Positions 21,661-36,443 of a DNA stretch of 64,000 bases are shown one piece after another. This DNA comes from Bacteroidales bacterium (GTDB lineage Bacteria; Bacteroidota; Bacteroidia; Bacteroidales; F082). The stretch spans positions 10,119-74,118 of the forward strand of contig JAFTUF010000041.1 in the NCBI GenBank assembly GCA_017466405.1. Direction: 5' to 3'. A program made the translations under genes and the position numbers. Below the pieces are notes generated by a model. It did no database searches and was not told the origin of the DNA. It saw nothing but the letters and a program-made list of their open reading frames with translations. Numbering within the stretch: position 1 is the stretch's first letter; the number at the start of each line of letters is the position of its first letter.

Positions 21661-21735
21661 TGGAAACTACTGGGGTCGAACCAGTGACCTCCTGCTTGTA
21701 AGGCAGGCGCTCTAAACCAACTGAGCTAAGCTTCC
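21661..21735 (-). tRNA. tRNA-Val (anticodon TAC)
   Basis: Reverse complement GGAAGCTTAGCTCAGTTGGTTTAGAGCGCCTGCCTTACAAGCAGGAGGTCACTGGTTCGACCCCAGTAGTTTCCA folds as a cloverleaf with anticodon loop CTTACAA and T-loop GGTTCGA. Confidence 0.92.
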
Positions 21736-22472: not shown

Positions 22473-22544
22473 CAACCCCGCTGGGAATCGAACCCAGATC
22501 TAAGGAACCGGAATCCTTTATTCTATCCGTTGAACTACGGAGCC
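22473..22544 (-). tRNA. tRNA-Arg (anticodon CCG)
   Basis: Reverse complement GGCTCCGTAGTTCAACGGATAGAATAAAGGATTCCGGTTCCTTAGATCTGGGTTCGATTCCCAGCGGGGTTG. Anticodon loop TTCCGGT; T-arm CTGGG TTCGATT CCCAG. The acceptor stem needs three G-U pairs. Confidence 0.75.
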
Positions 22545-22619: not shown

Positions 22620-23960
22620 TTATCTGACAATGTTAATACGTTTTGTTATAATGCCGTTTTCTGTTGTGATACGAACTAAATAAACTCCATCATTGTATTG
22701 AGAAAGGTTGATGATTGCATTGTCATCACCGACATTATTATCATAAACAATTTGTCCTAAAGCATTGATTATAGAGATATGAGTCATGTCTTTAGACTCG
22801 ATATTTAACTGAGCGACTGCAGGATTAGGATAAATCTTTACATCATCGATTTCGTTTTCTTCAACCGAAGTACCATCAATCTTTGCGGTTTGAGGGCAAG
22901 CCATAAAATAATGTTCATAGTCCTTCTCACCTGCATAAACCACTCTCAATGTATATTCGTCGTCGTTTTGAGCCTCATTGTCAATATAAACCTCTTCAGT
23001 AACAAGTTCCGACAAGAGTTCGTCGTTGCGATATAGAACTGCACCAATAACTTCTGTTATCACAGGTTCTTCGTGCATTTCGACGTAAGCACGAATTTGC
23101 CATGTGTAAGCAGGCATTGAGAGCATAGCAAAGTCCATCCATCCGTAGCCTTCATAATAAATCCAGCGACCGTTTGAGTCACCTTGGTCGGCGCAGGCAG
23201 CAGCAGGCTGTTGTCCGTTATAATTCGTAATGACGACCCAAACATTCTGACTTCCGCTTACTTCCACGGATGTACTCAATGCAATTTCCATATAATCTTG
23301 AGAACCTGTTGTTGAAAACTCTTGACTATATAATAAGGTGCCAGGTTCCGAAGAGCCACCTTCATAAATGAAAACCTCGCCGTTGAACGCCTCGCAGTCG
23401 TAGATAGATACCTTTGTGATAGATTGTCCTGCATAATTTGCCACATCTGAAGCAGGAAACATCACAGCCCACTTAAACGACTCGAAGGTAACGCCGTCGA
23501 AAGTGAGACCTACCGGCATAGAGAAATTACCGTCATCATAATGAAGCCAATTGCCTTCTTTAGAATCTTTAGCATCTTTATAAACTGCAGGTAAGGTCCA
23601 ACTAAGGACACCTACATTATTAATCATACCAGCTGTGAAATTTGTAGCCCCGGCGTACAAGTCACAGCTTTTCTTTGTCCATACATAATCAGCACTTTCT
23701 CCTGAGCCATTAGCGAAGACTGGTATAACGGTAGTCTTATATTCCTGTCCGTCAACGAGGTTTTCATGTTGATAGAATAAAGTTGTCAGTTCTTCAGCAA
23801 CCAATTCGCCATCAAGATAAACCTGATACGATGAAGCATCGTTGAGTTCGTCCCACATCGCCCATCCTGTTGGTGAGACATATAAGTTATTGACAGTTTG
23901 TGCATTAAGCGACACCATCGCAAACATACACATAATAATAAAAGTAAATGTTTTTCTCAT
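22620..23960 (-). CDS. secreted protein with type IX secretion (Por) C-terminal sorting domain
   Basis: 446 aa with a signal peptide. C-terminal KIYPNPAVAQLNIES...GVYLVRITTENGIITKRINIVR is a typical T9SS CTD. Confidence 0.85.
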   Translation of the reverse strand: MRKTFTFIIMCMFAMVSLNAQTVNNLYVSPTGWAMWDELNDASSYQVYLDGELVAEELTTLFYQHENLVDGQEYKTTVIPVFANGSGESADYVWTKKSCDLYAGATNFTAGMINNVGVLSWTLPAVYKDAKDSKEGNWLHYDDGNFSMPVGLTFDGVTFESFKWAVMFPASDVANYAGQSITKVSIYDCEAFNGEVFIYEGGSSEPGTLLYSQEFSTTGSQDYMEIALSTSVEVSGSQNVWVVITNYNGQQPAAACADQGDSNGRWIYYEGYGWMDFAMLSMPAYTWQIRAYVEMHEEPVITEVIGAVLYRNDELLSELVTEEVYIDNEAQNDDEYTLRVVYAGEKDYEHYFMACPQTAKIDGTSVEENEIDDVKIYPNPAVAQLNIESKDMTHISIINALGQIVYDNNVGDDNAIINLSQYNDGVYLVRITTENGIITKRINIVR

Positions 23961-23998: not shown

Positions 23999-24036
23999 AG
24001 TCTAAAGTCGAATGATTAAAGTCTAAAGTTTTTTTT
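23999..24036. repeat. heptamer array (GTCTAAA)n plus T-run
   Basis: agtctaaagtcgaatgattaaagtctaaag tttttttt. Relatives lie at 41741-41764, 47848-47876 and 52529-52565. Confidence 0.8.
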
Positions 24037-24251
24037 GACAACTATCGACTTTTCTTAATACCTATTAATATAATATTCATATTTTCATTAAGATTACGTT
24101 AAAAAGAGATAAAATCGAGATTTTTCTTTATGATGAACTTGACAAAGCGACAAAGACTATTGTAAATTTGCAACAAAAATAAATAACAATTTAGAGAAAG
24201 TTCCGTACATACGCCATTATGTTTTATTGAAAAAAATCATTAATTTTTGTT

Positions 24252-24280
24252 TTTGATTTGTTACAAAATAATTAACTTTG
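24252..24280 (+). promoter_or_regulatory. Bacteroidota-type promoter (TTTG ... TAACTTTG) for RNA copy A
   Basis: The -7 box TAACTTTG at 24273-24280 matches TAnnTTTG. TTTG at 24252-24255 lies 17 nt upstream. Confidence 0.6.
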
Positions 24281-24286
24281 TCGCAG

Positions 24287-24509
24287 ATAAACAAAACATA
24301 ATTTTAATGATATAAAAGGTTTGAAATAGACATATTGAAGTAAGTGTTTGCTTATTGCGAGTGATATTCTGAAAATCGCCAAATTAAAATGAATGACCAC
24401 CGCTGCATTAAGTAAGGCTTCGCACTTTGTGCGGACTTTCTTATTTGCGTGGTCGTGGGCGTTTGGCGATGCCCCAGAATAACGAGTAAGATTGTTTCGC
24501 ACTTTTTTT
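24287..24509 (+). ncRNA. structured RNA / 5' leader, copy A (unclassified family)
   Basis: Conserved core 24320-24509 aligns with 25093-25283. It has nested helices (atcgccaaa/tttggcgat, ttctg/cagaa, gaccac(c)gc/gcgtggtc, cgcac/gtgcg) and ends in ttcgcac + T7. Five compensatory pair changes separate it from copy B. Confidence 0.7.
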
Positions 24510-24539
24510 ATTGTCTAAAATCTAATAAGGAACAACGCC

Positions 24540-24698
24540 ATGACCACTGACGAAATCAAAAACCATATTACCATCTCAGAAGAAACAGAACGTGACAAGA
24601 CCGCTTACGAAAGCAGTGAAGAAATATTCGGAAGGATAACATATTTAGAGACAGAGATTTGTGAAGCCATGTTTGAATTCAAGACCAAGTTTATGTAA
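24540..24698 (+). CDS. small hypothetical ORF (52 aa) downstream of RNA copy A
   Basis: Hand-translated as MTTDEIKNHITISEETERDKTAYESSEEIFGRITYLETEICEAMFEFKTKFM*. The stop lies 1 nt before the next ATG. Below the track length cut-off, with no recognisable motif. Confidence 0.3.
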   Translation: MTTDEIKNHITISEETERDKTAYESSEEIFGRITYLETEICEAMFEFKTKFM

Positions 24699-24699
24699 T

Positions 24700-24969
24700 A
24701 TGGAAGAAATCGCCGAAACTGAAATCAAAGAATTTATTTCAATAATAATTGAAAAGAAGAGGCAGCAGTTAAAAGAATACAACCTCCTCACCCACTCCAT
24801 ATTTCATGAGATGTTCGGCGATTCTGCAGGATTTGAAGGAAGTGATGATAAGAAGAAACAGAATTATTCCGAGATTATTAAATCTATCAACAAGCAGAAA
24901 GAGCTGATAGAAAGGTCGATTGAGTTATTAAAAGTCGCTGAGTCTCCGAGTCTCCGAGTCACCAAGTAA
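24700..24969 (+). pseudogene. hsdS: remnant of a type I R-M specificity subunit (HsdS): conserved coiled-coil regions only, no target-recognition domains
   Basis: From ATG at 24700: ...EKKRQQLKEYNLLTHSIFHEMFGDS... matches the HsdS central conserved helix followed by FxEMFGDP. A second helix QKELIERSIELLK follows. The C-terminus runs into the repeat gtctccgagtctccgagtc. Confidence 0.5.
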
Positions 24970-25022
24970 TTATGGAATTCAGGGACTCGTTTCTGAGGTT
25001 TAAAAATAATATTAAAATTTAT

Positions 25023-25054
25023 TTTGGATTTTAGAATAAAACTAATTACTTTTG
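25023..25054 (+). promoter_or_regulatory. Bacteroidota-type promoter (TTTG-N20-TACTTTTG) for RNA copy B and probably the downstream operon
   Basis: The -7 box TACTTTTG at 25047-25054 and TTTG at 25023-25026. No other TAnnTTTG lies between here and the ATG at 25322. Confidence 0.6.
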
Positions 25055-25059
25055 TCGCA

Positions 25060-25283
25060 AGTAATGAAAAGAGAAATATTATGAAGTAGAATTTTGAAAT
25101 AGACATAATGAAGTAAGTGTTTACTTATTGCCAGTGATGTTCGGAAAATCGCCAAAATGAAGAAATAGTCACTACTGCAATAGGAGATGCTTCGCACCAT
25201 GAGTGCGGACTTTCTTATTTGTGTGACTATAGGCGTTTGGCGATGCCTCCGAATATCAAATAAGGAAGGTTCGCACTTTTTTT
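25060..25283 (+). ncRNA. structured RNA / 5' leader, copy B, immediately upstream of the nine-gene operon
   Basis: Core 25093-25283, paralogous to 24320-24509. Helices agtcac(t)ac/gtgtgact, ttcgg/ccgaa, atcgccaaa/tttggcgat and cgcac/gtgcg. Ends in ttcgcac + T7, 38 nt before the ATG at 25322. Confidence 0.7.
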
Positions 25284-25321
25284 ATTGTGGGTAGTTGTAT
25301 AGAAAAACAAATCTATGTATT

Positions 25322-26674
25322 ATGGAAAAAAGATTTTTACTTGCTTTTTTGCTCATCATCCTTGCAGCTGGATGTAGCAGAAATCCGTCTCGGCAAAGCA
25401 GTGGTAGAGAAAATGTTGAGACAAAAGAAACACTAGAATTAGTTGAAAAAACGGATGTGGAAAATCCAGTAGTTAAACCCACACTCAAAGTCAAACCTGT
25501 AGTAAATATCTACATTGAGAATTCTGGTAGTATGAATGGATTTATAAATAAAACGTCCGAATATCAGGATGCTATTCAAAATATGGTAGTATGGTTAGAA
25601 TACTATTACGATACCGATAATATCAAACTACATTATATCAACGAGCGTGTCATTCTTAAAGAAAAACCAGTAAGTATACCTTTACCAGACTTTGCACAAC
25701 AAATGCTGTCTCCTGTAGAATTTAAATCAAATGGTAATGGCGCATCAACTAATCTTAATAGTATAATAGCGATGATATTAGATCGTACTGACGATAATAC
25801 AATATCTATATTGTTATCAGATAACATTTATTCTATTTCGGGTTCACAAACAGCACCTGTGTTGTTAGCTGAATGTAAAAATAAAACATTACAGGCTTTC
25901 TTGGGAAAAAGCAAGGAACTGAATATGCAACATCAACAAGCTTTATCCACAACAATCATTCAACTACATTCTCAATTTAGTGGTAATTATTGGGATTATA
26001 AACATCCTACTGGAAAAGCATCTCAACAGTTGAATTGTAAGAGACCTTATTATATGTGTGTTATTGGAGTTAATGATTTGATTTCTGATTTTAACAACAA
26101 ATTTAATGTCAATGAAATGAATGGTTACAGAAACAAATACACATTAACAGACATGGAAGAGTTGAATCCTAAATATGGTGTGCTAGTAAACACATATAAG
26201 ACAGGTAGATTTAGGAAAGTAAATGACACAACAATAAGAGAAGCTTCATTAGATGGACGTAAAAACATTTTTGCCTTGGCGATAGCTGTTGATTTGAGTG
26301 AAATACCTCTGAATGATGATGAAAAATGTGATACACGTTTATTTGAAGCAACAGAAGATTATGATATAGAGGAAATTATAAAGATAGATGATGCAACAAT
26401 ATCTCCAGTTGATATGCAAGTGACCAAGAATTGCACACACATAATAAAGGTTTCTACATCAAATAAAACTATTCCTGGTTTTACATTAAAAATGAAAAGA
26501 TTGTTGCCAAATTGGGTGGAAAATACATCATCTGTAGATGATACAAAAATAGGAACTGATACTGAAGAACAAAAACGGACATTTGGTTTAGCATACTTCG
26601 TCAATGGAATAAAAGAAGCATACGACAAAGGAGCTGATAATTATTTTGAAATTAACATTACAGTAAACAAATAA
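25322..26674 (+). CDS. lipoprotein with vWA-like domain (operon gene 1)
   Basis: Start taken at MEKRFLLAFLLIILAAGC (lipobox LAAGC). VVNIYIENSGSMNGFI resembles the vWA beta1-MIDAS motif DxSGSM with E for D, and ISILLSDNIYS resembles the vWA TDG strand. Confidence 0.6.
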   Translation: MEKRFLLAFLLIILAAGCSRNPSRQSSGRENVETKETLELVEKTDVENPVVKPTLKVKPVVNIYIENSGSMNGFINKTSEYQDAIQNMVVWLEYYYDTDNIKLHYINERVILKEKPVSIPLPDFAQQMLSPVEFKSNGNGASTNLNSIIAMILDRTDDNTISILLSDNIYSISGSQTAPVLLAECKNKTLQAFLGKSKELNMQHQQALSTTIIQLHSQFSGNYWDYKHPTGKASQQLNCKRPYYMCVIGVNDLISDFNNKFNVNEMNGYRNKYTLTDMEELNPKYGVLVNTYKTGRFRKVNDTTIREASLDGRKNIFALAIAVDLSEIPLNDDEKCDTRLFEATEDYDIEEIIKIDDATISPVDMQVTKNCTHIIKVSTSNKTIPGFTLKMKRLLPNWVENTSSVDDTKIGTDTEEQKRTFGLAYFVNGIKEAYDKGADNYFEINITVNK

Positions 26675-26684
26675 AAATAAGATT

Positions 26685-27110
26685 ATGATACAAGATTTTA
26701 TTGCAAACATTTACGAACTATGGGGAGCCGCTTATTTTGAAGGTTTCTCTGATGATATGTACAATATCAACGCCTATTTACCTATATTTTTATGGATGAT
26801 TATTTCCATAATTGTTGTAAGTGTAACATATTATTACATAATAAATCATTCGAGATTAAATCGGTGGTATTGGTGGGGATTATTTAATTTGGTCACATCG
26901 TTGTTGAATTTTGGGATAGCATGGGGAGCATCTCATGGAAAATTATTGGATTTATATAATAGTCAAAATATGGATTTCCCATATTCTGCGATGATAGAAT
27001 TTTTCCCATTTGCAGTTATCTGCTTTTGCTGGACATTCGTACTATATTTTGTCTTCTCTATGGTTATAAAATGGGGAAGTAAAAACTGTAAACATTCACC
27101 GTTTTTGTAA
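26685..27110 (+). CDS. small integral membrane protein, 3 predicted TM segments (operon gene 2)
   Basis: 141 aa. Hydrophobic stretches YLPIFLWMIISIIVVSVTYYYII, WYWWGLFNLVTSLLNFGIAWGA and FFPFAVICFCWTFVLYFVFSMVI. Confidence 0.7.
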   Translation: MIQDFIANIYELWGAAYFEGFSDDMYNINAYLPIFLWMIISIIVVSVTYYYIINHSRLNRWYWWGLFNLVTSLLNFGIAWGASHGKLLDLYNSQNMDFPYSAMIEFFPFAVICFCWTFVLYFVFSMVIKWGSKNCKHSPFL

Positions 27111-27127
27111 TTAAAAAAAGTAAAGAT

Positions 27128-28534
27128 ATGAGTAAAGTTTATGTATTTGGAATAGGAGGAACGGGTTCTCGTGTATTGAGATCCTTAACTTTGTTATTAG
27201 CATCAGGTGTTGATTGTGGTAACGACACAATAGTTCCCATAATTATTGATCCAGATGCTTCTGGCGGTGATTTGACAAGAACTGTCTCTCTGATGAGATG
27301 TTATAGTGATATAAGAAAACAACTTGTTTTTGATGGAACAAGTCAAAATGAGTTTTTTAAAACGGAGATAGATCAAGTTGTTCCCGGTTTCCAGTTGCCG
27401 TTAGATAATAAAGTACAAACATTGAAATTTCAAGATTATATGGGAGTAAGTTCTATGACTTCTAATAATCAATGCTTGATGTCAATGTTGTTCTCCGATA
27501 AAAACCTGAGTGCAAATATGAACGTCGGTTTTAAAGGGAATCCAAATATTGGTTCTGTTGTTTTAAATCAGTTTTCTCAATCAGAGGATTTCAAAGCATT
27601 TGCGAACAACTTTCAACAAGGCGATAGAATATTTATTATTAGTTCTATATTTGGAGGAACAGGAGCTAGCGGTTTTCCATTGTTACTTAAAACATTACGT
27701 AGCAATACAAACATTCCAAATTTTGCTTTAATCAACAATGCCATAATAGGTGGAATAACTGTTTTGCCTTATTTTAATGTAAAACAGGATAATAGCAGTG
27801 AAATTGATTCAACCACTTTCATATCAAAAACAAAGTCGGCATTGGCTTATTATGACAAAAATATAAGCGGCAACAATTCTATAGATGCACTATATTATGT
27901 GGCGGATGATATCAATAATGCTTATGATAACCATGAAGGTGGAGGAAATCAAAAGAATGATGCACATATGGTTGAGCTTATTTCAGCCTTAGCTATAATA
28001 GATTTCGTTAATAATATTAACAACAGAATAAATCCAACAATACATAAAGAATTTGGAATTAAAGATTTGCAAAATGGGGCTAATGATGTAATTCTTTCAG
28101 ATTTTGCAAAAGGAACCGAAGATATAATTAAAGATTCTTTGATAAGTATGTTCCTTTTTGCAAAATACAACAATAATTGTTTGGAAAAACAATACGAACA
28201 CCAGCCATGGGCAATAGACAGAAAACTGGATAGAGCGTTCTTTAGAGGCAGTTTCTACAAAAATATAGAAATGATTCAGACTGATTTCTTCGCTTGGTTA
28301 GGGGAATTATCATCTAATAAAAGAAAACTTACCATGTTTGAATTAGGTGATGACTGTGAATTGTTTAAATCAGTTAAAGATTATTCTCCCAAAAAGAGCT
28401 TTGGATTCACAAAAAATTATGCGTTGATTGACAAATGCCTTAATAAACAAGTCCAAAGCGGAACGAATAAGGAACAATTATACATAAACCTATTCTATAG
28501 TGCTTTAAAAGAAGTCGTATCACTAAAATTCTAA
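27128..28534 (+). CDS. tubulin/FtsZ-superfamily-like GTPase (operon gene 3)
   Basis: 468 aa. N-terminal VYVFGIGGTGSRVLRSL matches the FtsZ T1 G-box position. SSIFGGTGASGFPLL is close to the tubulin/FtsZ T4 signature GGGTG(S/T)G. No TM and no FtsZ-type C-terminal tail recognised. Confidence 0.7.
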   Translation: MSKVYVFGIGGTGSRVLRSLTLLLASGVDCGNDTIVPIIIDPDASGGDLTRTVSLMRCYSDIRKQLVFDGTSQNEFFKTEIDQVVPGFQLPLDNKVQTLKFQDYMGVSSMTSNNQCLMSMLFSDKNLSANMNVGFKGNPNIGSVVLNQFSQSEDFKAFANNFQQGDRIFIISSIFGGTGASGFPLLLKTLRSNTNIPNFALINNAIIGGITVLPYFNVKQDNSSEIDSTTFISKTKSALAYYDKNISGNNSIDALYYVADDINNAYDNHEGGGNQKNDAHMVELISALAIIDFVNNINNRINPTIHKEFGIKDLQNGANDVILSDFAKGTEDIIKDSLISMFLFAKYNNNCLEKQYEHQPWAIDRKLDRAFFRGSFYKNIEMIQTDFFAWLGELSSNKRKLTMFELGDDCELFKSVKDYSPKKSFGFTKNYALIDKCLNKQVQSGTNKEQLYINLFYSALKEVVSLKF

Positions 28535-28538
28535 AGTT

Positions 28539-31500
28539 ATGTCTAAAGTTTTCAGATTACATCAGGATAATAATACATTGATTGATTGGCAGCAATCACA
28601 ACCATATAGCACCAATGTTATAAATCAGATAAAAGACCCTAATGGAGCTACTTCAAGAAATGAAATCACTTCAATACCATCACCATTCGCAAGAATAGAC
28701 CTGGTAAAAAGTGCGTTTAAAGAAGTGAATATGTTAGGTCTTGACGGTAATACAATTTACCATAAAATGGTGTCAGATAGTTTGGACATTGGGCAAATAT
28801 TCTTTAATTATCCAAAATTTAAGAATCTTGTAAATGTTGTTTTTTGGGATAAGACTAACGATTTACAAGCTTTAAAGCAATCGACAATAACATCTCATAG
28901 AGTTGTTGGAGAAACACTTGAGATGTATATGCAACAAGATGGCAGTACATATAATTTCAATAATATGCAAAGAATATATATGCTGCAATACATTGGACCT
29001 CAATGCAAGATAAATGATATTATTGGTGCGACATCTCCATGCACATTGTTTTTTAGTTCCGCAAATGATTTATCAAGAATCTCAAATTACATATCCTTTG
29101 ATGGTAATGACAAACCATTTGACAACCAATATCAACCTTTATATAAACGTGATATTGAATATGTCAAATATTTATGTGCTTTAAGAGCATCTTATCCAAT
29201 GTTTGCTGTTGAATTTTCAGAAGTCAATGAATATATAAATCTTACAATAAATAAATTAGGACAAGATATAAATAATCAGGGATTTATTAATCAAATTAGC
29301 ACTTTTGATACTAGTACAATAAATAATTATACCAAACTAGTTGTTAATAACAATAACATTGATGTAATAAATGGCATAACATTATGTGAAGTGCCAAAAG
29401 TTCATGTAAAAAGTGATTTTGAGATTAATTCCACGATATTTGCAGGTGAACAAAAGCCGTTAGTTTTACCGGTTGAAAAAGGCAATCAATATTCTTCGTT
29501 GACTTATACATCTACAGTTTGGAATCCAAACAATTCAGCCCCGTATTTTGACGGCAATCCGTTGGCAAGAAGGACTTTGCCTTCCACAAGTGACGCTCAT
29601 CCATATCTCACAATTAGCGATTTCTTAGAAGATAACATCATTAAGATGCCTTATCGTATGAATGAAAAGGATTATTATGATGGTGGCTTTAACGCAATTA
29701 GTGATGAAAATGAATCATATTTATTGCCATTGAAGAAATTATTTTTTGATTTCTTTACGGTCGACGAGTTATTAGGGACTCTTCCTAACGGACAAAAGAT
29801 GTTCGAGTTTAGAAGTAATGCAGGAGGTATTACTGTAATTTTACGAATTCCTATTCAGAAGAACTATTGTGTTGAGTATAAAAGGATTTATTTGAACAAT
29901 AGTATTGCAGATATTTCAAAGAACTTAGGTGGTGTTATAATCAAGAAATTTGGTCTTGGTATTTTGCCACCCGTTAAGACAGATAATGAACTTTCATATT
30001 ACAGAATAGCGTTATTTGATAAAGGTGATAACAATATTACCTTAACACCATGCATGGGAAAAGATTCTGTTGCTGCTATCAATGTTGTTCATACTCCCAA
30101 AACAAATAAAACATCTGGCGTGGAATCATACATCATTGATAAACATTCTTTTGATAGGATTGAAGTATCAGTTGGTTCAAATATGGCAGTTTTGGTTCCT
30201 ATTTTAAGATCTGCGGTTGGAAATAGGAAATTTACTATTGCCATTGACTTTGGAACTACTAACACTCATATAGAGTACAGTAAAGACAATAATCCATCTT
30301 CTTCATTCTATATCAATACAAATGATATTCAAATCTCAAGATTACATATTGATTATACAGACATTGATATTGATACGTCATTCGACAGATATTTTATTCC
30401 TTCTGTAATTGACGGAGTCGAGTATGGTTATCCAATGAGAACTGTTCTTGCCGAAAGCAATTCAATTAGTTATAATAAACCGGTGTATTCAATGGCTCAT
30501 GCTCATGTTCCATTTAAATATGAGAAAGAAGCTTGTTCAAGATATTATTCTATTAAGACTAACTTAAAATGGTCTAACGAAGAAAGGAAAAGGGTTGAAT
30601 TATATATAGAAAATATTGTTATATTGTTAAGGAACAAAGTTTTGTTAAATGATGGAGACTTATCAAAGACCCAAATTAAATGGTTTTACCCGACAAGTAT
30701 GGTGCAGTATCAGATTGATGGACTGAAGAGAATATGGTGTGACCTATACAAAAAATATTTTGGTAGTGATGTTCAGAATGTTATTGGAATTCCAGAATCG
30801 ATAGCACCTTACAAATATTACAAAACTACACAAGGAGCTCAGTCTAGCGTATTAACAATTGATATTGGAGGTGAAACCAGTGATGTATTTGTAGTTGAAG
30901 ATTCAAAAGCAAAAATGATGTCATCTTTCCGTTTTGCGTCAAACGCAATTTTTGGAGATGCATTCGGATATAATTCTGATAATAATGGTTTCGTATTAGG
31001 GTATCTTGATAAATTCAAAACTATACTTAATGATAATGGATTAAACACATTATCAAATGCTCTTGATGATATTGTAGTTCAGAAAAAATCATCTGACATA
31101 GTTGCATTTTTTTATGCTTTATCCAATAATAAAGAGGTCAAGAAGAAGAATATCACAGCATTGGATTTTCAAGATAAATTATCCAATGACGATTGTTTGA
31201 AATATGTGTTTGTGATGTTCTATACTTCCTTGCTGTATTTTATCGCAAAAGAAATGAAATCAAAGGGACTTAGAATGCCATTGACGATAGCTTTTAGCGG
31301 AAACGGTTCAAATTCTATAAAGATTCTCTCCAATGATACTGTAACATTAAAGAAATATGCACAGATGATATTTGAAGATGTGTATGAAGAAAAATATGCA
31401 AAGGGAGAAATGTTAGATGTAATTTGTGAAGAAAACCCTAAAACCGCAACGTGTAAAGGTGGAATTCTAACAAACAACGATGATGTTGACTTTGATACAG

Positions 31501-31868
31501 ATGAATTAAAATACAATTTGTTAGGAATCAATGCTGTTGATACTATTGACAGTTTTAAGTATAGTGATGTTGACAATAATATCATAAATAAGGTTGTAAA
31601 TCAAGTGGAATCGATGATTGACTATGCCTTGTCTCCTGATAAAATCAAATTTTATATAAAATATTTTGGAGTTAATCAAGGTAAGTCAAATTCCATCAGC
31701 GAATTGACAAAAATTAAACTTCATGAATATGCAAAATCAGCATTAGATGCAAGAAAAGAAGAACTCAAAACATGGAATGCTGATGAAACTTGCAGCTTAG
31801 AAGAAACATTGTTCTTCTATCCTATAATCGGTATGTTAAACAATCTTGCAAGAGAAATAACAAAATAA
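28539..31868 (+). CDS. 1109-aa protein: unknown N-terminal half plus C-terminal actin/Hsp70-like (ASKHA) ATPase (operon gene 4)
   Basis: FTIAIDFGTTNTHIEY (phosphate-1, compare DnaK IDLGTTNS), VLTIDIGGETSDVFVV (phosphate-2 DxGGGTxD) and LTIAFSGNGSNSIKIL (adenosine motif). The first 550 aa or so have no recognisable motif. Confidence 0.75.
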   Translation: MSKVFRLHQDNNTLIDWQQSQPYSTNVINQIKDPNGATSRNEITSIPSPFARIDLVKSAFKEVNMLGLDGNTIYHKMVSDSLDIGQIFFNYPKFKNLVNVVFWDKTNDLQALKQSTITSHRVVGETLEMYMQQDGSTYNFNNMQRIYMLQYIGPQCKINDIIGATSPCTLFFSSANDLSRISNYISFDGNDKPFDNQYQPLYKRDIEYVKYLCALRASYPMFAVEFSEVNEYINLTINKLGQDINNQGFINQISTFDTSTINNYTKLVVNNNNIDVINGITLCEVPKVHVKSDFEINSTIFAGEQKPLVLPVEKGNQYSSLTYTSTVWNPNNSAPYFDGNPLARRTLPSTSDAHPYLTISDFLEDNIIKMPYRMNEKDYYDGGFNAISDENESYLLPLKKLFFDFFTVDELLGTLPNGQKMFEFRSNAGGITVILRIPIQKNYCVEYKRIYLNNSIADISKNLGGVIIKKFGLGILPPVKTDNELSYYRIALFDKGDNNITLTPCMGKDSVAAINVVHTPKTNKTSGVESYIIDKHSFDRIEVSVGSNMAVLVPILRSAVGNRKFTIAIDFGTTNTHIEYSKDNNPSSSFYINTNDIQISRLHIDYTDIDIDTSFDRYFIPSVIDGVEYGYPMRTVLAESNSISYNKPVYSMAHAHVPFKYEKEACSRYYSIKTNLKWSNEERKRVELYIENIVILLRNKVLLNDGDLSKTQIKWFYPTSMVQYQIDGLKRIWCDLYKKYFGSDVQNVIGIPESIAPYKYYKTTQGAQSSVLTIDIGGETSDVFVVEDSKAKMMSSFRFASNAIFGDAFGYNSDNNGFVLGYLDKFKTILNDNGLNTLSNALDDIVVQKKSSDIVAFFYALSNNKEVKKKNITALDFQDKLSNDDCLKYVFVMFYTSLLYFIAKEMKSKGLRMPLTIAFSGNGSNSIKILSNDTVTLKKYAQMIFEDVYEEKYAKGEMLDVICEENPKTATCKGGILTNNDDVDFDTDELKYNLLGINAVDTIDSFKYSDVDNNIINKVVNQVESMIDYALSPDKIKFYIKYFGVNQGKSNSISELTKIKLHEYAKSALDARKEELKTWNADETCSLEETLFFYPIIGMLNNLAREITK

Positions 31869-32641
31869 TGAGTATGAGAAAAGTAATAATATGTATGTTG
31901 ATGGTTTTTGTTTCCATAACAACAATATCTTGTGGTAAAATTAGTCGAAAGGATAAAGTAACACATCCTTCGGAACAATTAAAACAAAAATCAAGAAAAT
32001 CAGAGTCTGGTAATAACCATTTCCTATTGTGGAGCGCATTGATTATTTCTTTGTTTGCTAATGCTGGTTATACCTATGTTTTGTATAACAAAACAAAAGA
32101 ACGTACAGAATCTAGATTACAGAGGTTGAGGAATAATGTCGATAAGTTGGAAAATGATTTTATTTTAGAAAAATCACAACAACATGCAAGAGAAACCACT
32201 CGTAATGGCAGTTCTACTCGATACACATTGATAGACGGCGATATAAACTTAATTGTTGACAGAGTACTTGAATGCATAAACATTGACAAAACCCATGAAA
32301 ATACTTATGATGATGTGGGTAAAAATCCACCGCAACCCAAAACGATAAAGAAATTATATGCCGAAGCAGCTAACAAAGATAATGAGTTTTTTAGAAAGGT
32401 TACAGAATATCAAAGTGAAGACACAATTTATGTTTTGTCATTGATAGATGATAACCGTGCTGAATTTGTTATATGTGATAGCGCCAAAAGCACCATTATA
32501 GGTTGTGAGGATTATTTAAGGAATGTTTGCGATATTATAGGTAGCGGACGCAATATTGAAAATTGTGAACCGGGTATCGCCCAAAAAACAAGCGATGGTT
32601 CTTGGAAGGTTATCGAAAAAGCTAATGTAAAATTCGTGTAA
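31868..32641 (+). CDS. membrane/lipoprotein-like protein with coiled-coil segment (operon gene 5)
   Basis: The ATG at 31868 overlaps the TAA of gene 4 (TAATG). MSMRKVIICMLMVFVSITTISC is a signal/lipobox. Second hydrophobic segment FLLWSALIISLFANAGYTYVLY, then a charged helical region. Confidence 0.6.
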   Translation: MSMRKVIICMLMVFVSITTISCGKISRKDKVTHPSEQLKQKSRKSESGNNHFLLWSALIISLFANAGYTYVLYNKTKERTESRLQRLRNNVDKLENDFILEKSQQHARETTRNGSSTRYTLIDGDINLIVDRVLECINIDKTHENTYDDVGKNPPQPKTIKKLYAEAANKDNEFFRKVTEYQSEDTIYVLSLIDDNRAEFVICDSAKSTIIGCEDYLRNVCDIIGSGRNIENCEPGIAQKTSDGSWKVIEKANVKFV

Positions 32642-32642
32642 A

Positions 32643-34379
32643 ATGGGACACTATTTAATAATAGGAATCATCGTTTTGCTAATTATTGGAGTTCAGATAT
32701 ACTTCTTTAGCAAAACATCAAAAGAGATAAGAAAATTCTCTAACATTTTTCCTAAATCAACAGACAACTTGTATGCTCATGATTCGGAAATTTATGTAAG
32801 AGATTATGAAAATAAGATAGATTACGATATAGATGATAAACTTGATAAATATATCAAGAAACATGATTCAGTTTTTGAAAGAATAATATCGAGCTTAAAT
32901 ACTTATTTGCGAAAAAATAAAGGCGCTGCAAGCGACTATCATCTTATGAAAGATATAGTTGAAAGAAACTGTGATGCCAAAGAAAATGAAATAGATACTC
33001 AAATTCCGACTCCATTATATACAGGTTTGATGGGAACTGTTTTAGGAATCATTGTCGGTGTTGCATTCTTACTTTTTAGTGGTGGATTGTCAGCTTTGTT
33101 GGATAGCAATTATGATTTGATCAATAGCACAACAAATGTAAATGAGATTGTAGGCAGAGAATCTGCACAAGATATTAAAGATGAACATATAATCATCATT
33201 AAAGAAGGTGAATTGATAGATTCTGAACATAAAGCTAGCAAATTGATTGATTATGCGAAGAGAAATAATACCGAAATAAAATTAAAGTCAGATAATTCTG
33301 GAAGTAAAGGTGTTTCAGCTTTATTGAGTGGTATTGCATTAGCAATGATAGCTAGTTTTGTTGGGATTTTGCTTACTACAATAGCGTCATATCGTTTTAA
33401 AGGAGCAAAAAGCAAGGAAGAAGAAGGCAAAGATAAATTCTTAAGTTGGATTCAATCGGAATTGTTGCCGCAATTATCATCCGATGTTTCAGGTACCCTC
33501 GTGAAAATGGGGCAGAATCTCAGAGATTTTAACACTACATTCTCTGAAAATACAAAAGAACTCAGTGCAACATTAGACAAGGTAAATGAATCGTACAGAG
33601 GTCAAGCTGAAGTACTTCAGTCAATAAAAGAATTGAGAATAAATGAAATAGCCACTGCAAACATCACTATTTATGATAAGTTAAAAGATAGTACTCAAGA
33701 ATTAGGAGATGTAACACAACATATTTCAGAATATTCAGAGCAGTTGTCAAAACTTGGAAAGTATCTAAAGAATTCTGAAAAATATCTGATTCAAGTTAAA
33801 GAACTTAACGAGAAACTTGATGAAGGTGAAGAAAGAATGAAAATGATAGAACGACTTGGACAATTCTTTGAGACTGAATTACAACAAATTCAAAATAGAA
33901 AGTCGGAAATGACAAAGGCTGTCGGTATTGTTGATGATGCATTACAAGAAGCTTTAATAAAGATGCAGGAAAATGTCGGCAGACAATTCAATGAACTTGA
34001 AAAATCATCTGCTATACAACAAGACATTCTGCAAGAAAAACTTAAAGAAACGACTGCACTTGTTGATGAACTGAAAAATCTCACAGCAGTTAAAGCAAGT
34101 TTGGATAAAATTGAGAAATCAACTGAAAAAACATCGAATGAGCAAAATAAACGTTTGGACACACTTATATCATCAATAAATATATTAACGTCTGAAATCA
34201 AGAAAGGTAATTCTGTAAATATAGGATTTAATAGCGGTGGTGCTCCCGTAGTAACTAAAAAAATGCCTAAATGGGCAAAAGTGCTGTTAATAATAGGCGG
34301 CTCTTTAGTAAGTCTTACTTGCTTGATAATAATATCTGTTATAGTTCTAAAAGTCCTAAAAGATATAAATATTATTTAA
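32643..34379 (+). CDS. MotA/TolQ/ExbB-like ion-channel protein with long coiled-coil tail and C-terminal TM anchor (ZorA-like; operon gene 6)
   Basis: 578 aa. PLYTGLMGTVLGIIVGVAF and GIALAMIASFVGILLTTIASY resemble the two conserved MotA/ExbB helices (GLLGTVxG; A-x-x-T-T-x-x-G). About 270 aa of heptad-rich sequence follow, then MPKWAKVLLIIGGSLVSLTCLIIISVIVL. Confidence 0.65.
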   Translation: MGHYLIIGIIVLLIIGVQIYFFSKTSKEIRKFSNIFPKSTDNLYAHDSEIYVRDYENKIDYDIDDKLDKYIKKHDSVFERIISSLNTYLRKNKGAASDYHLMKDIVERNCDAKENEIDTQIPTPLYTGLMGTVLGIIVGVAFLLFSGGLSALLDSNYDLINSTTNVNEIVGRESAQDIKDEHIIIIKEGELIDSEHKASKLIDYAKRNNTEIKLKSDNSGSKGVSALLSGIALAMIASFVGILLTTIASYRFKGAKSKEEEGKDKFLSWIQSELLPQLSSDVSGTLVKMGQNLRDFNTTFSENTKELSATLDKVNESYRGQAEVLQSIKELRINEIATANITIYDKLKDSTQELGDVTQHISEYSEQLSKLGKYLKNSEKYLIQVKELNEKLDEGEERMKMIERLGQFFETELQQIQNRKSEMTKAVGIVDDALQEALIKMQENVGRQFNELEKSSAIQQDILQEKLKETTALVDELKNLTAVKASLDKIEKSTEKTSNEQNKRLDTLISSINILTSEIKKGNSVNIGFNSGGAPVVTKKMPKWAKVLLIIGGSLVSLTCLIIISVIVLKVLKDINII

Positions 34380-34380
34380 T

Positions 34381-35058
34381 ATGAAAAAGAATAAAAAAGA
34401 ATCATTCTTTTGGACAAGCTATTCAGATTTGATGACCAGTATGTTTTTTATAATGCTGGTGTTGTTTGTTGTTACAGTAGCCTTGCTTCACAAGGAAATG
34501 GTCAAGATTGGTGAGGAAAGAGAGGCAATGCGTATTGAGAGAGATATTACGCAGGCACAACTTGATAAGATAAAAGAAATTCAGGAGGCAACACAAACCA
34601 TTGATACCACATACTTTAGATTCGATAAAAATTTTAATAGACATACGTTGAGAAACATAACAGTCTCTTTTAATAGATCTAGTTCTAACATAAACGACAT
34701 TCCTCAAGATGTTAGGAATACTTTAGCCGAAGCAGGAAAAGCAATAAGAGAATCTTTGTTAGAAGCACAAAATAAAACTCCGGAAGCAAAATTTTTACTG
34801 ATAATTGAAGGTCAAACATCAAACGATGGTTATGTTGCTAATTACGAGCTCAGTTATAGCAGAGCCCTAAGTCTTGTGAAATTCTGGTCAAGTCAAAAGA
34901 TTTATTTTGACGAAGCAGGTGGTATACATAATTGTGAAGTTATTATTTCAGGTAGCGGAAGGTCTAGTCAATTTAGAGAATTGCCTGATAACAAATATAA
35001 TACTAAAAATCAAAGATTTGTAATTCATATCATTCCAAAGCCGGGAGAAATAAAATGA
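34381..35058 (+). CDS. MotB/OmpA-like stator partner (ZorB-like; operon gene 7)
   Basis: 225 aa. N-terminal FWTSYSDLMTSMFFIMLVLFVV is the MotB-type TM plug with the conserved Asp. C-terminal LLIIEGQTSNDGYVANYELSYSRALSLVKFW is an OmpA-like peptidoglycan-binding motif. Confidence 0.78.
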   Translation: MKKNKKESFFWTSYSDLMTSMFFIMLVLFVVTVALLHKEMVKIGEEREAMRIERDITQAQLDKIKEIQEATQTIDTTYFRFDKNFNRHTLRNITVSFNRSSSNINDIPQDVRNTLAEAGKAIRESLLEAQNKTPEAKFLLIIEGQTSNDGYVANYELSYSRALSLVKFWSSQKIYFDEAGGIHNCEVIISGSGRSSQFRELPDNKYNTKNQRFVIHIIPKPGEIK

Positions 35059-35810
35059 TAAAGAAACTGATATTATGCATTTGCGTACTAGTGCTTTTCT
35101 TTTCTTGTGTAAGAAGACGAGAAGGAGTACATAACTCCAATTCAAGAAATCATTATGCTCAAGAACGAGTTAGAACAAGTAGTAATAGACACAAACCGGT
35201 GAGAACACAAGAAACCAGTCCGATTCAACCTGTAAATAGGGCGGATAACAAAATATTAAATGGTTCTCAGATATTTGAAAAATACAACCCTGCAGTTTTT
35301 ATGATTTTTACTTCTGACGGGTGGAACGATTATCAAGGTTCTGGCTTCTTTGTCACGTCATCTGGAATTGGTGTTAGCAATTATCATGTTTTTGAAGGTA
35401 CGACAGTCGGGTATGAAACAATTAAATTATCAAATGGACAAACATATAAAATAAGAAATGTCATCGCTAAGAGTAAAGATGATGATTTCATTGTGTTTCA
35501 GGTAGAATCTAAAGGAGTTTCGTTTAAATATATACCTATGGGAATAAAGAATCCAAAAGTAGGCGAAAAAGTCTATACAATAGGCAGTCCGTTAGGTTTG
35601 GAAAACACATTCTCGTCAGGAGAAATTTCACAGTTGAGAGAGGATAATTTAATTCAAATCAATGCTCCTATAGATCATGGCAGTAGTGGTGGTGCACTTA
35701 TAAATGAATATGGAGAAGTCATTGGCATTACTACAGCAGGCATAGGAAGTTCAGGAGCAAACCTAAATTTTGCAGTTGATATTGATGTTGTGAGACCGTA
35801 TGTGAGATGA
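35055..35810 (+). CDS. lipoprotein trypsin-like (S1/DegP-fold) serine protease (operon gene 8)
   Basis: ATGA overlap with gene 7. Lipobox LVLFFSC. Catalytic triad context SNYHVFEG (His), DDDFIVFQV (Asp) and DHGSSGGALIN (Ser). Confidence 0.82.
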   Translation: MIKKLILCICVLVLFFSCVRRREGVHNSNSRNHYAQERVRTSSNRHKPVRTQETSPIQPVNRADNKILNGSQIFEKYNPAVFMIFTSDGWNDYQGSGFFVTSSGIGVSNYHVFEGTTVGYETIKLSNGQTYKIRNVIAKSKDDDFIVFQVESKGVSFKYIPMGIKNPKVGEKVYTIGSPLGLENTFSSGEISQLREDNLIQINAPIDHGSSGGALINEYGEVIGITTAGIGSSGANLNFAVDIDVVRPYVR

Positions 35811-35880
35811 AAAAGTTTAGAAATCCTTGAACTAATATTAATATTTATATATCAATGAAGATTCTAAATAATAACCTATT

Positions 35881-36261: not shown

Positions 36262-36381
36262 AGTTCTAAAAAAAATATGATGGAATGGCACATTGCCAAA
36301 AAGTTATAATATCAATACATTTTTTCGAGAAAAATTATTTCAATGTGATTAAATTGCACGTAAATTCCGATTGTAACAAAC

Positions 36382-36418: not shown

Positions 36419-36443
36419 TATTCGTGGATAAAATCCATTAGGG

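Follow-up and report, generated by a model that had tools for sequence, protein, structure and literature searches.

What does a relative of tubulin and FtsZ do when the genes around it are not those of cell division? The question is raised by g3, a gene in a stretch of 64,000 nucleotides of a Bacteroidales contig (JAFTUF010000041.1, positions 10,119 to 74,118; assembly GCA_017466405.1), referred to as the window below. An earlier note, made from the sequence alone, had read two glycine-rich motifs of the 468-aa product as the T1 and T4 loops of a tubulin/FtsZ-type GTPase lying outside any division context. Here, g3 is identified as a true, if very divergent, tubulin/FtsZ-superfamily protein, which is encoded in a conserved operon together with a giant actin-fold protein, a ZorAB-like stator pair, and a variable exported effector. 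The coordinates of all features are collected in Table 1.

Identification of g3 as a divergent tubulin-fold protein

The g3 open reading frame (ORF) starts with ATG and runs for 468 codons, and the opposite strand of the same interval is stop-rich and closed in that frame. Both motifs on which the earlier note relied were recovered, VYVFGIGGTGSRVL at residues 4 to 17 and SSIFGGTGASGFPLL at residues 172 to 186. They were kept, together with an MSK(V/L/I)Y start, in every g3 homolog examined. An identical protein (P0001) is annotated as "hypothetical protein" in a Bacteroidales metagenome-assembled genome (MAG).

When g3 was searched against Pfam, two families were matched and no others: Tubulin (PF00091; E value of 4e-5, 24.3 bits versus a cut-off of 33, profile positions 2 to 140 of 190) and Tubulin_2 (PF13809; E value of 2e-4, 21.1 bits versus a gathering score of 27, model positions 147 to 210 only). 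The same two families were matched by all 35 aligned homologs (at E < 0.01 for Tubulin_2), with best E values of 2e-6 and 2.6e-8, respectively. Sequence searches of the PDB with g3 and its profile (phmmer and hmmsearch) returned CetZ and FtsZ only, in the T3-T4 region and with marginal E values. Because the PDB searches with g3, its profile, and the partner protein g4 (described below) gave marginal matches only, a fold search was necessary.

The AlphaFold2 model of g3, obtained from the 35-sequence alignment, had a mean predicted local distance difference test score (pLDDT) of 85.3 and a predicted template-modelling score (pTM) of 0.90. When the model was compared with the PDB by Foldseek, tubulin-family structures occupied 44 of the 45 top ranks (probability of 0.94 to 1.0, and of 0.99 to 1.0 for the top matches to tubulin, gamma-tubulin, and CetZ; E values of 3e-4 to 7e-3), including beta-tubulin, CetZ2 (4b45), gamma-tubulin, CetZ (3zid), and Odin tubulin. 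The template-modelling (TM) scores of these matches were just 0.2 to 0.4, because only the N-terminal domain matches. A search of a viral structure library with the same model gave phage tubulin, FtsZ, and PhuZ.

Could the glycine motifs be a chance match on a generic Rossmann-like or P-loop protein? The Pfam scores under the gathering thresholds, an hhalign alignment to a single FtsZ sequence that was not significant on its own, and one short-chain dehydrogenase at Foldseek rank 45, the sole non-tubulin in the top 45, would fit such an explanation, but it is contradicted by the tubulin-family character of all the other structural matches and by the independent result from the viral library. 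In addition, five separate loops agree in order and register, and no Walker A motif was found in g3 or in any other of the ten operon ORFs. A chance match is thus effectively refuted. With Pfam Tubulin and Tubulin_2 found in g3 and in all of its aligned homologs, and with tubulin, CetZ, and FtsZ found by fold, the superfamily assignment of the earlier note stands, and we regard g3 with high confidence as a tubulin-fold GTP-binding protein.

The genetic setting was also as the earlier note had described it. No genes of the division and cell wall (dcw) cluster lie near g3, and no ftsZ was found within the window. A role of g3 in cell division is very improbable.

Nucleotide-binding loops, insert, and C-terminal half of g3

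The loop map of g3 was drawn from the order of secondary-structure elements in the model and from the conserved columns, set against the sequence of Escherichia coli FtsZ (Table 1). When the g3 family profile was aligned with E. coli FtsZ by hhalign, T3-T4 alone was reliable (E value of about 0.1) and the global mode failed. A low-confidence extension held S5, H5, and S6 in register, with nothing reliable beyond S6. Since hhalign was reliable for T3-T4 only, the mapping of T5 to T7 was based on motif order, spacing, and conservation.

Within the g3 family, a set of loop residues was invariant down to 22% identity, cyanobacterial relatives of 22 to 26% identity included. These were G10, G11, G13, D41, and D43 and, likewise, G134, F135, G137, P139, G142, S173 to G179, G182, P184, P214, and Y215. 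The invariance of the T-loop residues makes it very likely that nucleotide binding is retained, and as T1 to T6 are kept, g3 most likely binds GTP. The T4 loop, FGGTGASG (residues 175 to 182), is the near match to the signature GGGTG(S/T)G that had been noticed earlier; it is invariant in the family and one glycine short of the consensus.

The distance between T1 and T4, which had been called the expected one, is in fact unusual, at 168 residues in g3 versus 85 in E. coli FtsZ (G20 to G105). In tubulin, the two loops are about 130 residues apart. The long distance in g3 is due to a conserved insert of about 65 residues (64 to 130) between H2 and T3. Inserts between T1 and T4 were noted for the FtsZl families by Makarova and Koonin in 2010 (PMC2875224).

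Beyond S6, G271, Q275, N277, and E283 are invariant and A279 and H280 nearly so, and the 16-residue helix 281 to 296 was taken as H7-like. The canonical T7 motif NxDxxD/E was found neither in g3 nor in the aligned family, in agreement with the earlier note, in which no FtsZ-type T7 loop was recognized. A T7-like position can nevertheless be proposed. Glu308, in the sequence HKEFG, is kept in at least 90% of the g3-family sequences, and close homologs show no variation at G310. From D260 in T6 to E308 there are 48 residues, compared with 47 from N165 to D212, the catalytic T7 aspartate, in E. coli FtsZ. Because of this conservation and the FtsZ-like spacing from T6, Glu308 is hypothesized to be the T7 acidic residue.

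In the model, residues 297 to 468 of g3 are mostly helical, unlike FtsZ_C or Tubulin_C, and the longest predicted helix has about 23 residues. No match to FtsZ_C was obtained from Pfam. The C-terminal domain of FtsZ and tubulin is replaced in g3 by a helical domain of its own. The C terminus (...VVSLKF) sits inside a helix and no tethering peptide is evident, so that the earlier note was also right in seeing no C-terminal peptide.

The actin-fold partner g4

Directly 3' of g3 lies the gene for g4, a protein of 1109 aa. No Pfam domain was found in any of 2597 homologs of g4. Four motifs were invariant in the g4 alignment, DFGTTNT (570 to 576), PESxAPY (752 to 758), DIGGxTxD (775 to 782), and FSGNGS (919 to 924), which we take to be the phosphate-1, connect-1, phosphate-2, and adenosine motifs of the actin/Hsp70 (ASKHA) superfamily. 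A profile search of the PDB gave a weak match to the nucleotide-binding domain (NBD) of Hsc70, located at the phosphate-2 motif. For the AlphaFold2 model of g4 (pLDDT of 83), MreB, ParM, the Hsp70/DnaK NBD, and actin-related proteins were obtained with Foldseek (best E value of 7e-8, and E values below 1e-5 for MreB, ParM, and the Hsp70 NBD; probability of 1.0), at a target-normalised TM-score of about 0.5 over roughly 450 columns. The N-terminal region of about 550 residues had no Foldseek or Pfam match.

Linkage between the genes was analyzed by BLAST of six-frame ORFs across 83 related loci, and a locus was counted only when it had enough flanking sequence. All of the loci counted for g4 (72 of 72) had a g4 homolog directly 3' of the g3 homolog, and the median distance between the two was 5 nt. 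In two natural fusions, P0240 (1534 aa) and P0265 (1611 aa), the tubulin-like domain runs on into a full-length homolog of g4. On cyanobacterial plasmids, too, a g4 homolog lies 3' of the tubulin-like gene (hhalign probability of 97%, E value of 1e-10). Because of this universal adjacency, the translational coupling, and the fusions, g3 and g4 are considered to work as one complex, and we are fairly confident that g3 acts together with g4.

The N terminus of g4 offers a candidate for the contact. Residues 1 to 47 (28539-28679) are predicted to be disordered (pLDDT < 50), yet they hold the invariant peptide EITSIPSPFARIDL. The conserved disordered peptide covers residues 40 to 60, ITSIPSPFARIDLVK, with E42, I43, T44, S45, P47, P49, F50, A51, R52, D54, and L55 invariant, and in the natural fusions it comes straight after the tubulin-like domain. 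This peptide is plausibly a docking element.

How would such a pair operate? Filament formation by g3 is possible but doubtful in our view. The superfamily members TubZ and PhuZ polymerise through new interfaces, which is a point against the opposite proposal. In this proposal, g3 is a nucleotide-binding, non-polymerising, and possibly non-hydrolysing regulator or scaffold, that is, a GTP switch or dimerisation module, for which g4 is the engine. The helical C-terminal half devoid of an FtsZ_C- or Tubulin_C-like domain, the low TM-scores to polymer-forming tubulins, the missing canonical T7 motif, and the obligate, sometimes fused, pairing with g4 are in line with this proposal; the near-invariance of Glu308 at a T7-like spacing and the conservation of T3 and T4, which are as strictly kept as in active FtsZ, are not. 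It was also reported that the T6-H7 part of FtsZl1 could not be aligned by Makarova and Koonin (PMC2875224), a further point for the switch or scaffold. On the whole, we consider it rather improbable.

Operon layout and upstream genes

The g3 gene is the third in a co-directional block in which the gaps from g2 to g8 range from -4 to +17 nt. The layout is well kept across the related loci. A g1 homolog was located 5' of g3 in 75 of 75 loci and a g2 homolog in 69 of 81, and on the 3' side g6 was found in 58 of 62 loci and g7 in 53 of 61. On cyanobacterial plasmids, the position of g2 is taken by a counterpart of about 155 aa. Most of the operon products are membrane or periplasmic proteins.

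In g1, E75, S79, and D176 are invariant and form an E-x-S-x-S...SD pattern that is possibly like that of the von Willebrand factor A (vWA) domain. The candidate assignment of g1 as a vWA protein was not confirmed; no Pfam match was found in 22 members, no PDB profile match was obtained, and there was no similarity to the Deinococcus deserti counterpart. No named system was assigned to g1-g5 by PADLOC and NCBIfam, and neither the P-loop "new GTPase" nor the protein kinase of FtsZl1 and DO-GTPase systems was found among the operon proteins.

The stator pair g6 and g7

The products of g6 and g7 resemble the ZorA and ZorB subunits of the Zorya system. For g7, the PADLOC model of ZorB1 was matched nearly over its full length (E value of 6e-15), and five relatives matched it at 1e-10 to 1e-14. 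The NCBIfam ZorB1 model gave a score of 33.8 versus a cut-off of 400, and weak Pfam matches to OmpA and MotB_plug were found in g7 relatives. In the N-terminal membrane helix, the motif [YFW]xD[LM][ML][TS] was present in 60 of 61 g7 homologs. The aspartate in the N-terminal membrane helix of MotB-type proteins carries the ion. With this helix and its match to nearly the whole of ZorB, g7 conforms to the B subunit of the 5:2 stators of the MotAB/ExbBD type, which has a single N-terminal transmembrane segment bearing the conserved aspartate and an OmpA-like domain that binds peptidoglycan.

The evidence for g6 came from several searches. The PADLOC model ZorA2 was matched at an E value of 1.3e-5 and Pfam MotA_ExbB at 1e-3, and relatives of g6 matched ZorA at 1e-6. 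The profile search of the PDB was swamped by coiled-coil matches, among which the sole relevant match was 8vvn, a MotA/TolQ/ExbB domain protein (E value of 0.024). Four hydrophobic segments were recognized in g6. The MotA-like protein encoded next to FtsZl1 in D. deserti was aligned to g6 by hhalign with a probability of 88% and an E value of 3e-6. The two proteins g6 and g7 are regarded as a ZorA-like and a ZorB-like protein that would form a peptidoglycan-anchored, ion-driven stator. PADLOC found none of ZorC, ZorD, ZorE, ZorF, and ZorG at the locus, so the operon is not a Zorya system of types I to III.

Variable genes

Two positions of the operon vary. The g5 gene, whose start overlaps the stop codon of g4, was found by BLAST in just 16 of the 83 loci, and its relatives range from 208 to 387 aa. 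The terminal position, taken by a protease gene in the window, was also variable. It contained a trypsin-like protease in 35 loci, a retropepsin-like aspartic protease with a DTGA motif in 11, an Endonuclease_NS in 6, an SNase in 1, and a transglutaminase-like protein, so named by motif only, in 2. All of these types bear signal or lipoprotein leaders.

Further 3' of the protease gene, an ORF of 126 aa (35881-36261, + strand) has an N-terminal hydrophobic leader. It is kept only in the two closest relatives (87% in L004 and 77% in L010) and has no family match, and it may serve the protease as an accessory or inhibitor.

Family size and distribution

A HMMER search of 1.84 billion cluster representatives gave 1861 g3-family clusters, defined at 50% identity, at E <= 1e-3 and 534 at E <= 1e-30, and the motifs of g3 are invariant across the family of 1861. 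Among 185,579 GTDB species genomes (one genome per species), g3 relatives were found in at least 557. The best 80 of these species are almost all Bacteroidota (Bacteroidales, Flavobacteriales, and Marinilabiliales), and the cultured carriers include Paludibacter propionicigenes, Bacteroides vicugnae, Lepagella muris, Flavobacterium akiainvivens, and Maribacter ulvicola. Distant relatives with 27 to 29% identity are located on cyanobacterial plasmids. One cyanobacterial relative exceeds the Tubulin_2 threshold with 40.8 bits and bears the NCBI name "tubulin-like domain-containing protein".

A phage origin of g3 was considered, and no g3 relative was found by tblastn in 50,697 phage records. Operon contigs of the Bacteroidales type that are identical or nearly so (L019 and L020, with L032, L040, and L069) also turn up in MAGs assigned to Bacilli, Oscillibacter, Sphaerochaetaceae, and Bacillota, and the results for L019 (Bacteroidales) and L020 (Bacilli) were identical. 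The cross-phylum labels of L019/L020, L032, L040, and L069 most likely reflect contamination in metagenome binning rather than real spread.

Genomic setting and a predicted structured RNA

The operon lies in a block of about 12 kb (24000-36300) with a GC content of 0.29 to 0.33 and a positive GC skew, and the GC content of the flanks is 0.36 to 0.44. The block is located between two tRNA genes, tRNA-Val (21661-21735, - strand) and tRNA-Arg (22473-22544, - strand), on one side and the transfer-messenger RNA (tmRNA) gene ssrA (36443-36842, - strand) on the other. Genes for tmRNA are classic island insertion sites. The block has the appearance of an island that was acquired next to ssrA.

Neighbourhood evidence was drawn from the 8 loci with precomputed annotation and is anecdotal. 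Two of them adjoin a tyrosine integrase with WYL, HTH, and Fic genes, and one is inside an obvious defence island with WYL-WCX, MNT/HepT, VbhA/Fic, HsdM, and a Schlafen/AlbA_2 ATPase. Other annotated loci are near ParE, HSDR_N_2, or DUF4160/DUF2442.

Directly 5' of g1, a rod-like structured RNA was predicted, and an additional copy is located in front of small ORFs. The two copies are 86% identical. The RNA ends in a U-run and has a minimum-free-energy z-score of -7.5; no Rfam match was found even at E <= 1. With a covariance model, the RNA was detected on the coding strand 5' of g1 in about 9 operons; the tubulin-like proteins encoded by these operons share just 45 to 86% identity with g3. 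In the alignment, 93.9% of cells were paired and double compensatory changes were found in 44 of 56 pairs, versus 10 to 15 in slid controls; as the alignment was fitted to the covariance model, this count leans towards structure. The + strand is favoured because of the G-U pairs and the difference in score between the strands (208 bits on the + strand versus 26 on the - strand). The RNA is possibly a leader, an attenuator, or a small RNA of the operon.

Small ORFs at 24541-24700 and 24661-24969 (+ strand) lie between the two RNA copies and may not be genes; the 102-aa one has a counterpart, 52% identical, only in the close relative L010. Just 5' of the island, a gene at 22620-23960 (- strand) encodes a 446-aa protein with a C-terminal sorting domain of type IX secretion (Por_Secre_tail, E value of 6e-13), which confirms the Bacteroidota origin of the window.

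Table 1. Features of the g3 operon, loops of g3, and copies of the structured RNA (window coordinates unless a related locus is named)
Feature	Position	Strand	Residues	Basis or counterpart
g1, lipoprotein of ~450 aa, lipobox LAAGC	25322-26674	+		Signal peptide and lipobox; probable ATG at 25322 read from the sequence
g2, membrane protein of 141 aa	26685-27110	+		At least two hydrophobic segments
g3, divergent tubulin/FtsZ-fold GTP-binding protein (predicted), 468 aa	27128-28534	+		ORF, Pfam, AlphaFold2, Foldseek
g3 S1-T1, FGIGGTGSR			7-15	E. coli FtsZ GVGGGGGN
g3 T1 loop, GIGGTG	27149-27166	+	8-13	Counterpart of FtsZ GVGGGG
g3 S2-T2, IIIDPD			38-43	E. coli FtsZ AVNTD
g3 T3 loop, VGFKGNPNIG	27524-27553	+	133-142	hhalign to FtsZ GAGANPEVG
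g3 T3, GFKGNPNIG			134-142	E. coli FtsZ GAGANPEVG
g3 S4-T4, IISSIFGGTGASGFP			170-184	E. coli FtsZ IAAGMGGGTGTGAAP
g3 T4 signature, SIFGGTGASGFP	27644-27679	+	173-184	Aligned to FtsZ GMGGGTGTGAAP and the CetZ T4 loop
g3 S5-T5, ITVLPYF			210-216	E. coli FtsZ VVTKPF
g3 S6-T6, LYYVADD			255-261	E. coli FtsZ LITIPND
g3 candidate T7-like segment, PTIHKEFGI, with Glu308	28031-28057	+		Spacing and conservation, hypothesis
g4, partner of 1109 aa; N-terminal ~550 residues of unknown fold, C-terminal half of actin/MreB/Hsp70 (ASKHA) fold	28539-31868	+		AlphaFold2, Foldseek
g4 ASKHA ATPase core	30204-31538	+	about 556-1000	Motifs DFGTTNT, PESIAPY, DIGGETSD, FSGNGS
g5, variable membrane or lipoprotein gene	31868-32641	+		ATG at 31868 overlaps the g4 stop codon
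g6, ZorA/MotA-like membrane protein, coiled-coil tail of ~300 residues, C-terminal transmembrane segment	32643-34379	+		PADLOC, Pfam, hhalign
g7, ZorB/MotB-like stator subunit, transmembrane Asp (YSDLMT, D16)	34381-35058	+		PADLOC
g8, exported trypsin/HtrA-like serine protease, lipobox FFSC, variable terminal position	35055-35810	+		Pfam Trypsin_2, E value of 6e-22
Rod-like structured RNA, copy 1	24325-24519	+		In front of small ORFs
Rod-like structured RNA, copy 2, ~195 nt	25098-25293	+		Directly 5' of g1
Structured RNA in L004	7940-8134
Structured RNA in L010	6855-7048, 7579-7772
Structured RNA in L080	7894-8088
Structured RNA in L013	2009-2197
Structured RNA in L071	934-1107
Structured RNA in L012	7842-8079
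Structured RNA in L019	90-277

Comparison with known tubulin-like and stator systems

The earlier note had suggested that g3 might belong to the FtsZl-1/Tubulin_2 group. FtsZl1 proteins are long, about 900 to 1100 aa, with an FtsZ-like domain, a lengthy coiled coil, and a helical C-terminal domain, and their operons encode vWA, OmpA-like, GTPase, and membrane proteins, for which a role in membrane remodelling was proposed (PMC2875224). On plasmid 2 of D. deserti, the operon encodes proteins of 421 and 108 aa, FtsZl1 (1070 aa), a "MotA/TolQ/ExbB" protein (411 aa), an OmpA protein (200 aa), and a protein of 859 aa, and the operon of Cyanothece 8802 encodes a vWA protein, FtsZl1, the B7 membrane protein, and a COG1360 MotB (PMC2875224).

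The likeness to the window is considerable. As in g3, the N-terminal domain of FtsZl1 has a divergent tubulin fold with T1 and a T4 of the GGTG type, extra stretches are inserted between these two loops, FtsZ_C is missing, and the gene lies outside dcw. The order of genes from g1 to g8 follows the same grammar as in D. deserti, where proteins of about 420 and about 110 aa are followed by FtsZl1, a MotA-like and an OmpA/MotB-like protein, and a large gene that varies. However, FtsZl1 is about 900 to 1100 aa long and carries a coiled coil, whereas g3 has 468 aa and none. The C-terminal region of FtsZl1 is replaced in the window by the separate, non-homologous g4, and no similarity between that region and g4 was seen in a direct comparison. 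The vWA protein and the P-loop GTPase of FtsZl1 operons have no recognizable counterpart in the g3 operon, where no vWA domain was detectable in g1 and no P-loop GTPase or kinase was found. Deide_2p00780, the classical FtsZl1 from D. deserti plasmid 2, scored 235 bits over the full Tubulin_2 model.

The grouping is borne out by the operon layout, the MotA-like homology, and the cyanobacterial relative over the threshold; g3 itself is sub-threshold and lacks the coiled coil. In general, the g3 proteins are a short subfamily of about 470 aa at the edge of the FtsZl1/Tubulin_2 group, and the window holds a distinct variant of the FtsZl1-plus-stator theme, with a short tubulin-like protein and a separate actin-fold giant. 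That the operon is an FtsZl1-like system is considered likely. At the D. deserti locus (L090, 116013-118592), the gene after the MotA/OmpA pair encodes an 859-aa leucine-rich-repeat-variant (LRV) protein and not a hydrolase; therefore, the terminal position also varies in long-FtsZl1 systems.

CetZ (PDB 4b45 and 3zid) and the eukaryotic and gamma tubulins are the closest solved structures to g3, both in sequence (T4) and in fold, sharing a Rossmann-type GTPase domain with T1 to T6. Identity is only 10 to 16%, at the TM-scores given above, and g3 lacks the C-terminal GTPase-activating domain of the FtsZ/tubulin type. The shape of archaeal cells is under the control of CetZ, which to our knowledge has not been linked to stators or hydrolases.

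A pair of tubulin- and actin-superfamily proteins that are encoded side by side and presumably are membrane-bound partners is also found in FtsZ-FtsA. Compared with that pair, the gene order of g3-g4 is reversed, g3 lacks the dcw context, FtsZ_C, and the C-terminal peptide, and FtsA has a third of the size of g4, whose 550-residue N-terminal region is of unknown fold. We know of no FtsZ-FtsA fusion.

The tubulin fold of g3 could also point to DNA or plasmid segregation of the TubZ/PhuZ type or to a spare division protein. Cyanobacterial plasmids do carry distant relatives, in one case at a distance of about 10 kb from parA/parB, and phage tubulin and PhuZ are among the structural matches. The operon, however, encodes no TubR-like, centromere, or DNA-binding partner, phage records gave no sequence match, and the Bacteroidota gene is chromosomal and locked in an operon with membrane, stator, and hydrolase genes. 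For a spare division protein, dcw genes nearby, an FtsZ C-terminal peptide, and FtsZ_C are all absent. Such a role of g3 is very improbable.

Zorya shares with the window operon a ZorB-type protein with the aspartate (g7), a ZorA-type layout of a MotA-type domain and a very long coiled-coil tail (g6), a downstream hydrolase effector, and the location on an accessory genomic island. Zorya systems combine ZorAB with ZorCD, ZorE, or ZorFG; in the window, ZorC to ZorG are absent and g6 has an extra C-terminal transmembrane segment. The effectors of Zorya are cytoplasmic nucleases, whereas those of the window operon and its relatives are exported lipoproteins, with tubulin-fold and actin-fold nucleoside triphosphatases (NTPases) added.

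Themes of tubulin/vWA and of HSP70 were described by Kaur et al. in 2020 for the DO-GTPase/GAP1 conflict systems of Firmicutes and Actinobacteria, in which tubulin proteins with vWA or membrane proteins and variable effectors were read as NTP-dependent thresholding devices in conflict (PMC7159879). A tubulin-domain protein, membrane proteins, and variable effectors are common to these systems and the window operon, and HSP70-fold proteins occur in sister systems. No DO-GTPase was found in the operon by Pfam, NCBIfam, PADLOC, or a search for Walker A; GAP1, for which the libraries have no model, appears to be absent as well. Furthermore, the DO-GTPase/GAP1 tubulins have coiled coils, the tubulin and HSP70 themes do not overlap there and occur together in the window, and no MotAB-like stator was described. 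Apart from the comparative genomics of 2010 and 2020, no paper on the g3 subfamily, on its actin-fold partner, or on a tubulin-like link to Zorya/MotAB or defence was found in the searchable literature.

Proposed function of the operon

As a whole, the operon is best explained, by analogy, as a system for conflict or defence that is coupled to a proton motor and whose cytoplasmic switch would be the tubulin-like and actin-like NTPases, and we lean slightly towards this explanation. For a defence or conflict role taken by itself, the balance is even. The conflict or defence reading is favoured because of the interchangeable terminal gene, the variable g5, the low-GC block by the tmRNA gene, the mobile and defence genes in the neighbourhood, and the relatives on plasmids. 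The patchy spread of the g3 family is also counted among the hallmarks of conflict systems. The operon looks like an envelope-spanning defence machine of gut Bacteroidales.

The proposed mechanism is modelled on Zorya and on the NTPase-switch conflict systems of Kaur et al. (2020). A perturbation of the envelope or damage such as phage attack would be sensed by the stator together with the periplasmic lipoproteins, and the long ZorA-like tail of g6 would relay the signal to the g3-g4 pair in the cytoplasm. The pair would then assemble or switch in a GTP- and ATP-dependent manner, and this assembly would set the threshold for, or license, the exported hydrolase effector.

Several observations weigh against this explanation. 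At the level of g3, both Pfam scores are below threshold and the Tubulin_2 match is confined to the T4-S5 part (positions 147 to 210), the TM-scores are low, and the g3 family profile matched Deide_2p00780 weakly (hhalign E value of 0.008, probability of 5%, T4-S5), in a comparison whose single-sequence target has low power. Glu308 was assigned to T7 from spacing and conservation alone, and g3 may lack the canonical longitudinal polymer interface, since its C-terminal half does not resemble FtsZ_C. At the level of the other genes, each test taken singly gives only a weak indication that g6 is ZorA-like, and the vWA nature of g1 was not confirmed by Pfam (22 members) or by the PDB profile search. 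Exported lipoprotein effectors sit awkwardly with a control by cytoplasmic NTPases. Two of the 8 annotated loci have housekeeping neighbours, PADLOC finds no known defence system at the locus beyond the ZorA/B-like matches and a protease domain, and no experiments on any FtsZl1-like protein were found in the searchable literature.

Some of the same observations lead to the main competing explanation, namely, that the operon is a housekeeping machine for membrane remodelling or for the envelope, with a tubulin-like and actin-like scaffold powered by the MotAB-like unit and no role in immunity. Vesicle formation, envelope maintenance, and the export or activation of periplasmic hydrolases are examples. 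Membrane remodelling is the published reading of FtsZl1 operons (PMC2875224). The mostly membrane or periplasmic products, the loci with housekeeping neighbours only, effectors that are exported and not cytoplasmic, and the lack of a called PADLOC system agree with it. A housekeeping role is harder to reconcile with the patchy spread and the low-GC island by the tmRNA gene, with nucleases and unrelated proteases swapping at one position, and with relatives on plasmids or beside integrases, toxin-antitoxin pairs, and restriction-modification genes. In addition, g7 matches ZorB defence models (PADLOC and NCBIfam ZorB1), and its flagellar MotB-type Pfam matches are weak. We consider a housekeeping role a substantial but less likely alternative and prefer the conflict or defence system.

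A wider proposal can be made tentatively, and with some doubt. The operon may represent a widespread, unrecognized anti-phage or anti-mobile-element immunity of Bacteroidota, related to operons of Cyanobacteria and to the FtsZl1 operons of Deinococcus, in which a Zorya-like, proton-driven stator would be coupled to a tubulin-fold GTPase and an actin-fold ATPase, fused to each other in some lineages, whose nucleotide-dependent co-assembly would be the deciding event that sets free exported nucleases or proteases.

Significance

Homologues of tubulin of the FtsZl1 type were predicted in 2010, and the searchable literature holds no experimentally known function for them. Here, g3 is recognized as a peripheral, short FtsZl1-like protein with a candidate T7 glutamate, and an actin-fold partner and a ZorAB-like stator with variable exported effectors are added to what the earlier note had seen, in hundreds of Bacteroidota. 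This compact subfamily with its sharply conserved partner set occurs in cultured and possibly genetically workable hosts, namely, P. propionicigenes, B. vicugnae, L. muris, and several Flavobacterium species.

The obligate pairing and occasional fusion of tubulin-fold and actin-fold NTPases is unusual. The link to a ZorAB-like stator joins two open problems, the role of FtsZl1 and the way in which Zorya-type motors signal to cytoplasmic partners. If the operon is an envelope machine instead of an immune system, both cytoskeletal folds would still have been put to a new use. If it is immune, it would be a large unannotated defence family in gut Bacteroidales, with relevance to phage-host biology in microbiome work. 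In that case, the FtsZl1 branch of the tubulin superfamily would have its first function, and polymerising folds of the tubulin-like and actin-like kinds would for the first time be seen as the basis of an immune system.

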